Source of the DNA: a virus
Taxonomy: Duplodnaviria; Caudoviricetes
DNA: 64,000 bases
Direction: 5' to 3' (one strand)
IMG/VR virus record: IMGVR_UViG_2811995040_000001
Span: 1 to 64,000 of that record
Shown here: in pieces, positions 25,835 through 26,020 of the stretch
Layout: every line of letters starts with the position of its first letter
How positions within the stretch are numbered: position 1 is the first letter of the stretch
Position numbers and translations under genes: made by a program
Notes under the pieces: generated by a model
The model's database searches: none
What the model saw: only the letters and a program-made list of their open reading frames with translations
Told to the model about the DNA's origin: nothing

Positions 25835-25859
25835 ACTGACCTCCTTATGTGTCCTGCTT

Positions 25860-26020
25860 GTGATTTAATTTCCATCGTAGTCGATTTGGCAGGTACTGTG
25901 TAGCCTGACTCCTCCTAGGGTTTAAGCCCGTATGTAAGCATATTGCGCACAGTCACTCGCCTTATCTACAAGCCCGTATTGTTGATTGAATTAACAAGTT
26001 CGTACATAAGGTAGGGAAAA
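25860..26020 (+). ncRNA. Putative IS110 bridge RNA
   Basis: Non-coding region upstream of the IS110 gene with stems (ACTGTG/CACAGT, TTGTTGAT/ATTAACAA) and segments matching the target and donor junctions; ends approximate. Confidence 0.65.

Follow-up and report, generated by a model that had tools for sequence, protein, structure and literature searches.

An inovirus-like prophage with an IS110-family recombinase and a probable bridge RNA, inserted beside a Shine-Dalgarno sequence in a lambdoid prophage

The stretch of DNA analysed here (the window) comprises 64,000 nucleotides of IMG/VR virus record IMGVR_UViG_2811995040_000001 and is part of a 77,274-base provirus record. Within it a lambdoid tail region, encoded on the minus strand, surrounds an insert of 10,827 bp (25848–36674) that forms one unit. 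This insert is very probably an inovirus-like prophage with an integration module consisting of an IS110-family bridge recombinase and a bridge RNA encoded just upstream of it. Support for this comes from the boundaries of the insert and a real empty site, from homology of both the protein and the RNA to IS110 relatives, from complementarity and covariation between guide segments and flanking DNA, and from movement of the whole 10.7–10.8 kb unit, which occurs with the same ends at five separate places.

Boundaries of the insert and the empty site

At the left junction the minus strand reads TAAGGAGG-TCAGT-ATG (25832–25847), which adjoins the insert and represents the Shine-Dalgarno (SD) sequence and start codon of an 85-aa open reading frame (ORF) of the lambdoid prophage. 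The plus strand at 25836–25847 is CTGACCTCCTTA, with the insert beginning immediately after it, and the sequence across the junction is ...CATACTGACCTCCTTA-TGTGTCC.... The first-pass annotation, made from the letters of the window, had read this junction in the same way, and the downstream 85-aa gene does keep its SD sequence after integration.

Relatives of the 85-aa protein were present in IMG/VR at four loci (L002–L005, 96–98% identical). Three of these (L003–L005) are related proviruses that lack the insert and have the same tail-fibre gene upstream. Their empty site contains, in order, the tail-fibre end ...GCAGTT with a TGA stop, a 32-nt hairpin, a spacer ending ...GGCGAATAACG, and then TAAGGAGGTCAGTATG; in L002 the upstream gene is different, yet the same ...ATAAGGAGGTCAGTATG is present. 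The right flank of the window aligns with L003 through 36671 (218 of 230 identical) and the left flank from 25850 (147 of 151 identical), with the two alignments overlapping by seven locus positions. The right junction therefore lies at 36671–36674, where the sequence is ...ACATAGTTG-CTTA-CGTGATTCGCC..., and not at 36722. The only sequence shared by both junctions is CTTA (25844–25847 and 36671–36674), and the recombination core is probably the CT at 25844–25845. The unit lacks terminal inverted repeats, the target is not duplicated outside the core, and the flanks rejoin exactly in L003–L005.

Because the right flank aligns with L003 through 36671, positions 36675–36721 are native DNA of the lambdoid prophage. 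The TAA of the window's tail-fibre gene (36722–36724) stands 47 nt from the junction and was never in the target. This bears on an empty site proposed in the first-pass annotation, in which GCA GTT TAA was joined directly to GGAGG and a stop codon was thereby fused to a consensus SD sequence. The check suggested there, on related lambdoid phages, returned a different sequence: the proposed site is absent, L003–L005 place the hairpin and spacer between the stop and TAAGGAGG, and both these loci and the flank alignments show that the TAA within TAAGGAGG is not the tail-fibre stop. The apparent fusion of stop codon and SD sequence, a tempting model, is an artefact, because the right boundary had been misplaced by about 50 bases.

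The bridge RNA homologue, its guides and independent integration sites

Relatives of the recombinase were gathered as loci: 10 in IMG/VR, 80 in one-genome-per-species contigs and eight in Enterobacteriaceae genomes. Most of those checked are compact (1,124–1,181 bp), with a left start of CT-TGTATCTT and a right end of AAGACAGTTG-CT. With about ten genes beyond the recombinase, the window unit departs from the size of a compact IS110 element (about 1.2–1.5 kb, one gene). A covariance model (R1) was built from eight relatives of the insertion sequence (IS) type, without the window and without a second prophage described below (L016). It gave a single, full-length match in the window, immediately upstream of the recombinase gene (25874–26021; 61.5 bits, E 3.2e-12), and scored 71.2 bits on the leader of L016. 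The leaders of relatives align block by block with that of the window, and RNAalifold applied to ten relatives returned an outer stem, an internal loop and an inner GGGU/GCCC hairpin, with compensatory changes in 10 of the 32 pairs. This consensus layout is that of the target-binding loop as described for IS621 (PMC11208160).

The rule by which guides are recognized was derived from the relatives and then applied to the window. In the relatives the left flank with CT recurs in about nine bases immediately 5' of the inner stem, and the eight bases 3' of ...GCCCG, of the form N6+AG, are the complement of CT and the right flank. In a comparison of 27 sites and 648 cross pairs, the left guide matched its own site at 6.0 of 9 positions versus 3.9 of 9 for mismatched element-site pairs, and the right guide at 6.4 of 8 versus 4.2 of 8; these averages include four mis-extracted Dehalococcoidia rows (L080, L083, L086 and L088, for which the donor loop was taken) that lower the own-site means. 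When applied to the window, the rule places six contiguous matches between CCUCCU of the left guide and CCTCCT of the target, and pairs the right guide UAUGUAAG with CTTACGTG (36671–36678) at 8 of 8 positions, six of them Watson-Crick and two G-U. The target is set by about 13 guide-matched bases. The guide-like segments pointed out in the first-pass annotation lie within 25908–25938; its description of them as specifying CCTCCT plus TA was right as to the CCUCCU guide and a second guide ending in UAAG, the complement of CTTA, and omitted four further positions of the right guide.

The other four of the five sites provide independent junctions at which the same rule can be read. The first is a second inovirus-like prophage (KfrA_N, Phage_GPA and Zot) in a Salmonella diarizonae genome (L016/L097), with a recombinase 61% identical to that of the window. 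Its left flank, ...CAT-AGCCTA-CCTCCTTA, is the SD sequence and ATG of a PTS EIIA gene. Its right guide UUGCUAAG predicted CTTAGCAA before the flank was located, and ...TTAACATAGTTG-CTTAGCAG was then found about 12.5 kb downstream, with 8 of 8 positions of UUGCUAAG and CTTAGCAG pairing. The second, L110, is a metagenome contig of the same clade whose left flank, ...CAAGTAAACTCCTTA, represents the SD sequence and TTG start of a 454-aa ORF; its right guide UCCGUAAG pairs at 8 of 8 positions with CTTATGGG in the empty sites of five of five Salmonella genomes. The remaining two sites come from contigs of runs containing a roughly 93%-like element. Runs X5, X6 and X10 have one common site with another flank (match ends 25843 and 36676; CTTACGG), and run X15 has yet another site (match ends 25843 and 36675; CTTACAG). 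All four runs share an A-to-C change at 25932, giving a guide ..CUGUAAG, and by hand count the right guide forms 7 of 8 pairs in X5 and X15. The 60–92% relatives from Salmonella, Citrobacter and Klebsiella entered the comparison as proteins.

The sequence common to all five sites is CCTTA. The left guide varies with its flank: in L110 AACUCC faces AACTCC, and both the window and L016 have CCUCC facing CCTCC, with 6–7 of 10 positions matching in these three. As read from aligned sequences, the putative guides of the target loop are complementary to both halves of the target, including the core, and covary with them. The window has a single copy of the right-end (RE) motif, located at the distal end of the phage; the layout of L016/L097 is the same, with the same RE at position 1555 of L097. 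Besides the change at 25932, the sole other leader difference listed for the X runs is a T-to-C change at 25957, just 5' of the donor-loop stem.

On the donor side, the left donor guide of the relatives is GAACAGUUG, facing AGACAGTTG, and the candidate in the window was assigned by the same arrangement. The right donor guide and the left end (LE) of the element show a switch between clades, from CAAG/CTTG in most relatives to UAAG/CTTA in the window, L016 and L101. The segment GCCUUAUCUAC (25958–25968) was considered as the left donor guide and rejected, as the right ends of relatives point to the GAACAGUUG-type segment further on.

These components suggest a mechanism in which the double-stranded circular replicative form of the phage serves as donor. 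Joining of RE and LE in the circle would create a donor site ...ACATAGTTG-CT-TATGTG... and would probably complete a promoter for the bridge RNA and recombinase. The joined ends place a -35-like TTGCTT 17 nt from the -10-like TTTAAT (25864–25869; read by eye), an arrangement formed only in the circle. At equal spacing, relatives carry TATAAT or TAAAAT, and IS621 is described as having a junction promoter (PMC11208160). The donor-binding loop of the RNA would then hold the RE-LE junction and its target-binding loop the chromosomal site, so that the RNA would bridge the joint and a CCNCC-T-TA-C/G... site. Strand exchange by the recombinase would occur at the shared CT(TA), the exact crossover presumably lying within CTTA, and would insert the whole phage with no host bases duplicated or deleted. 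The fixed orientation would leave the SD sequence on the downstream gene, and the right guide would limit each lineage to one or a few sites. Many cognate sites would be ribosome-binding sites (RBSs) because the left guide resembles the anti-Shine-Dalgarno sequence. Such a module may still be active today.

Several points weigh against this reading of the insert. Rfam 15 gave no match within 24000–39000 at E values up to 1, and the leader, folded as a single sequence, gains no stability over shuffled versions (z -0.70), of which 44 of 200 fold equally well. The right donor guide is also able to pair with GCCUUAU (25958–25964) within the RNA, and its role rests on covariation at the level of clades alone. 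The left-guide match is short, at 6 of 10 positions in the window and, by hand count, 5–6 of 9 at the X5 and X15 sites, and its register is off by one base from that of some relatives; either the left half is loosely specified or the register is imperfect. That X5 and X15 share the left guide of the window is taken from the lack of any difference between 25843 and 25931 among the 40 of 774 differences listed. Finally, neither a circle junction nor an excision product nor a transcript start was seen in the runs, all of which were compared as contigs.

Further searches returned little. Megablast of the LE and recombinase stretch, of each flank and of the whole insert gave no match in the E. coli genome or phage sets; a single-protein scan of viral_contigs gave no relative, and neither a 27-nt donor-loop pattern nor a gapped leader pattern matched there. 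Among 401 genomes of the family of genome G001 (5 of 401 matched) and five of its genus (1 of 5), only distant relatives were found besides L016. RNA runs X11–X13 and X17 contain part of the stretch (shares 0.28–0.66), which does not amount to evidence of expression.

Ribosome-binding sites as targets and alternative explanations

At three of the five sites, those of the window, L016 and L110, an SD sequence is accompanied by a start codon 8–10 nt from the core, each time in the same orientation. The other two are the X15 site, in a coding region, and the X5 site, whose context is unassigned. As a baseline, the first 30 TAAGGNGG words in one Salmonella genome were examined, and just 3 had a start codon 6–13 nt away followed by an ORF of at least 60 aa. 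Three of five exceeds what this word by itself would give, in a tiny sample and with AAGGAG-type words being SD sequences by nature. Counts of CCTCCTTA in the window (3 copies versus 1.62 expected; 24 of 100 shuffles reach 3) are uninformative taken alone. Two Salmonella genomes contain 17 and 21 matches to the permissive pattern CCNCCTTACRK, below the counts for reversed-pattern controls (43 and 34), and all seven rrs 3' ends carry ...CACCTCCTTA, none of which is among the CCNCCTTACRK matches.

The first-pass annotation had suggested that the phage homes to any strong RBS as an abundant target in which a reading frame is never broken. The SD-like nature of the target stood, being specified by a guide and recurring with a start codon and in the same orientation in L016 and L110; homing to any strong RBS did not. 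The right guide adds 4–6 lineage-specific bases, which together with the low count of permissive sites argues against an abundant target, and the X15 element, with the same left guide, lies within a reading frame, that of a DDE_3 (IS630-type) transposase remnant, whose intact site is present in L105 (PF13358 2.7e-14). Targeting is sequence-guided and rare rather than directed to every strong RBS.

The DDE_3 remnant in L105 (1447–1695, Salmonella genome G301) is 82 aa long, and the X15 site falls on its codons for LPPY. Hand reading of the X5 flank gives LPPY as well, perhaps more than a coincidence; this flank (24 nt) had no match in five Salmonella genomes at up to 2 mismatches. An alternative reading of the X15 flank, as an SD sequence and ATG on the minus strand, was rejected, since L105 shows it to be the antisense of a LPPYSPNLNPIERMW-coding stretch of the remnant.

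The alternative that survives best is that homing to SD sequences is itself a selected strategy, the anti-SD-like left guide being kept because insertion immediately 5' of a start codon, in one fixed orientation, does the host no harm or benefits the phage, with the right guide drifting so as to retarget between RBSs. This is possible, if on balance doubtful. The UCCUCC-type left guide is conserved among elements with recombinases only 49–61% identical (the window, L016 and L006/L098), and all four rows lie 9–10 nt from a start codon. The more distant IS of the L006 type, whose left guide is UUCCUCC, has the start of an IS3-family orfA 9 nt downstream in L006 and L098 and likewise in four of four E. 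coli records, and a second subfamily (L008–L012) likewise lands on GGTGG-AG-GCTGAGTRATG. There is also a precedent in IS900, which according to the title of a 1997 paper by Doran targets translation initiation signals. Against selection, the clade of the window offers just five distinct sites, one coding and one of unassigned context; AAGGAG-like words are SD sequences by definition, so that such a guide meets them without selection; L006 and L098 represent one kind of site; and most relatives are not near starts, the count being 15 of 68 with duplicate site kinds (L006/L098 and the L010/L011 type) unmerged. A tentative form of the idea, to which we would give no greater weight, is that a left guide mimicking the anti-SD end of 16S rRNA sends an enterobacterial filamentous phage circle to positions just 5' of start codons, in a fixed orientation by which the RBS is preserved, and that point changes in the right guide retarget it between RBSs in nature; the A-to-C change at 25932 with its new flanks would be one retargeting step in that reading.

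The E. coli records (L106–L109), taken with L006/L098, always place the IS110 relative with the UUCCUCC guide 9–10 nt upstream of the IS3-family orfA, one IS thus targeting the RBS of a second; both elements are annotated as pseudogenes in two of these four E. coli records. The second subfamily is a 1,172-bp IS110 relative with left guide ACUCAGCC that occupies four different places. In the sense of the gene its sites read ...ATCAAGGTGG-AG-GCTGAGTRATG, within the SD sequence of conserved phage gene starts, with the left junction at locus position 9821 (1357 in L009).

Far less probable is the original proposal that the target is a stop codon overlapping a consensus SD sequence (GCA GTT TAA GGAGG), through which the phage reaches any strong RBS. 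In its favour, TAAGGAGG is present at the left junction and is kept by the gene, and the share of sites with an SD sequence and start codon stands well against the TAAGGNGG words. The stop codon is another matter. In L003–L005 TAAGGAGG follows the tail-fibre stop at a distance of about 55 nt, the minus-strand ORF upstream in L016 ends some 90 nt away, and TAA is not a stop codon at either SD site with a readable upstream side (the window and L016). The site in L110 reads TAAGGAGT, not TAAGGAGG, and the lineage-specific right guides, the scarcity of CCNCCTTACRK and the coding location of the X15 site all stand against free access to strong RBSs. The stop-codon part of this interpretation is refuted.

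It is most improbable that the window holds two separate elements, an ordinary 1.2-kb IS110 beside an inovirus prophage integrated by other means such as host XerCD: compact 1.17-kb relatives do exist and Xer recombination is used by many inoviruses (PMC11209303), but no RE-like motif (at most 2 mismatches) follows the recombinase gene, the sole one being 9.7 kb downstream at the far end of the phage, LE and RE flank one continuous empty site, and at four other sites the unit has these same two ends. The same ends at five places and the single far-end RE thus argue against an IS merely lying beside the phage.

Comparison with known systems

An inovirus-like prophage integrated by a bridge recombinase agrees in most respects with the established bridge RNAs of IS110 elements (PMC11208160). 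As in the IS621/IS110 group, there is a recombinase with DEDD and Tnp_20 domains, a 5' non-coding RNA with target- and donor-binding loops, a left guide in the sense of the top strand and a right guide complementary to it, both including the CT core, no inverted repeats, and a -35 element from the right end. The window unit differs from IS621 in its size (10.8 kb) and in carrying an entire filamentous phage, whose replicative circle could act as the donor. It also differs in having four bases (CTTA) common to donor and target instead of two, a long right guide (8 pairs, G-U included) and a short left-guide match (5–6 contiguous bases).

Filamentous prophages with IS110-family transposases are already known. 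The Neisseria Nf/MDA prophages carry such a transposase and integrate into dRS3 repeats with a conserved CT (PMC7058167), and the Acinetobacter prophage Af1 also carries one (PMC11209303). Like the unit in the window, both are taken to integrate by the transposase at a short CT-containing site; unlike it, they target repeats (dRS3) rather than SD-like words, and no guide RNA is analysed in those papers. Their recombinases are only distant relatives of that in the window. A tblastn search against phages gave 14 records, seven of them named Inovirus, all below 60% identity and with best rows at 26–35%; the best phage-record matches to the window's protein are below 35%. Cargo-bearing, expanded IS110 loci far larger than 1.5 kb that move whole have been described in a preprint (10.64898/2026.08.14.744561). 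They likewise show matches between guides and flanks and tolerate partial ('half') matches; their cargo, unlike that in the window, consists for the most part of resistance genes and plasmid-like DNA. The preprint text has 0 occurrences each of the terms inovirus and filamentous; its supplement may list phage-borne IS110 loci. A literature search for bridge RNA and inovirus together matched only an unrelated paper, and the supplement of PMC11208160 may also list such loci.

Elements of the IS110 family that target RBSs are known as well. IS900, the subject of the Doran paper, is said to target translation initiation signals and reportedly inserts beside an RBS and start codon in one orientation, as in the window; unlike the window unit it is a compact IS with a Mycobacterium host.

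In the present case the guide RNA of a filamentous prophage can be read against real junctions, a modest advance. The unit provides a natural, sequence-resolved case of a whole phage genome as cargo of a bridge-RNA recombinase, with four or five independent junctions, a real empty site and single-base guide changes accompanied by new targets. This may help to explain how filamentous prophages choose their sites in Salmonella-like hosts and to annotate filamentous prophages whose ends are otherwise hard to call, and it offers natural variants of a genome-editing enzyme with a long, wobble-tolerant right guide.

Gene content and surroundings

The genes of the insert are all on the plus strand and of a different kind from those of the flanks (Table 1), and its GC content (0.27–0.49) differs from that of the flanks (0.53–0.56). 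By its gene set, and known here from its genes alone, the insert is assigned as an inovirus (filamentous phage) prophage, bearing out an earlier suggestion of an inovirus-like prophage within a lambdoid one. The recombinase has an N-terminal DEDD (RuvC-like) domain and a C-terminal Tnp domain, both above curated cut-offs, and its nearest named relatives are Salmonella IS110 transposases at 92% and below. No other integrase family was matched among the 10 ORF products scanned.

Table 1. Features of the insert and of the adjoining lambdoid prophage
Feature	Position	Strand	Remarks
370-aa ORF	24463–25575	-	
85-aa ORF, lambdoid prophage	25577–25834	-	SD sequence and start adjoin insert
Left half of target, CTGACCTCCTTA	25836–25847	+	CCTCCT 25840–25845 matches left target guide; CTTA 25844–25847 common to right junction
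Left end (LE)	25848–25873	+	-10-like TTTAAT 25864–25869
Bridge-RNA homologue, 148 nt, putative target-binding and donor-binding loops	25874–26021	+	Covariance model R1
Putative left target guide region, ACUCCUCCUA	25908–25917	+	CCUCCU 25911–25916, same sense as target CCTCCT
Inner hairpin of target-binding loop, GGGUUUAAGCCCG	25918–25930	+	
Putative right target guide, UAUGUAAG	25931–25938	+	Pairs 8/8 with top-strand CTTACGTG
Putative left donor guide, GUAUUGUUG	25976–25984	+	Same sense as RE tip ACATAGTTG, 6/9 match
Putative right donor guide, ACAUAAG	26004–26010	+	Complements LE start CTTATGT, 7/7
IS110-family DEDD recombinase, 326 aa	26022–27002	+	PF01548 2e-20, 73.6 bits (cut-off 29); PF02371 2e-16, 60.6 bits (cut-off 21.3)
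Rep_trans	27047–28318	+	PF02486 above cut-off
G5P-like protein	28321–28641	+	PF17426 above cut-off
Small coat protein	28836–29150	+	Coat matches below cut-offs (PF25631 21.2 vs 27)
pIII-like protein, 571 aa	29204–30919	+	
pIII-like protein, 566 aa	30921–32621	+	
Zot/pI	32909–34033	+	PF05707 above cut-off
Secretin/pIV	33988–35268	+	PF00263 above cut-off
DUF2726 gene	35581–36225	+	Inside unit that moves whole
Right end (RE), ACATAGTTG + CTTA	36662–36674	+	Homologous to AAGACAGTTG-CT of 1.17-kb IS relatives; single occurrence in window
Native intergenic DNA, lambdoid prophage (spacer and 32-nt hairpin 36690–36721)	36675–36721	.	Present in empty sites L003–L005; outside insert
Tail-fibre gene, 354 aa	36722–37786	-	PF08400 at 1.9e-30 and tail-fibre PHROGs; own TAA 36722–36724
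J-like central tail fibre	37853–41215	-	

The two adjacent pIII-like proteins are paralogues that share the C-terminal domain phrog_3942. In runs X5, X6 and X10 the stretch 30732–31200, at the boundary of the two pIII-like genes, is replaced by 278 other letters, and 33700–33802 by 110; the replaced segment at the gene boundary looks like a swappable adsorption module. Further along the prophage, 35270–36230 is very AT-rich (GC 0.27), and the DUF2726 protein encoded there, which has an N-terminal membrane segment, is probably accessory cargo.

In the lambdoid prophage, no Pfam or PHROG family matched the 85-aa ORF. In L002 (2700–3000) an HNH-like gene replaces the tail-fibre gene upstream of the same SD sequence and 85-aa gene; gene and RBS therefore move together as a module. 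The hairpin at 36690–36721, directly 3' of the tail-fibre stop, has a perfect 14-bp stem with CCTCC/GGAGG in both arms and is kept with few changes in L003–L005; it lacks a trailing T-run and is thus not a classic terminator.

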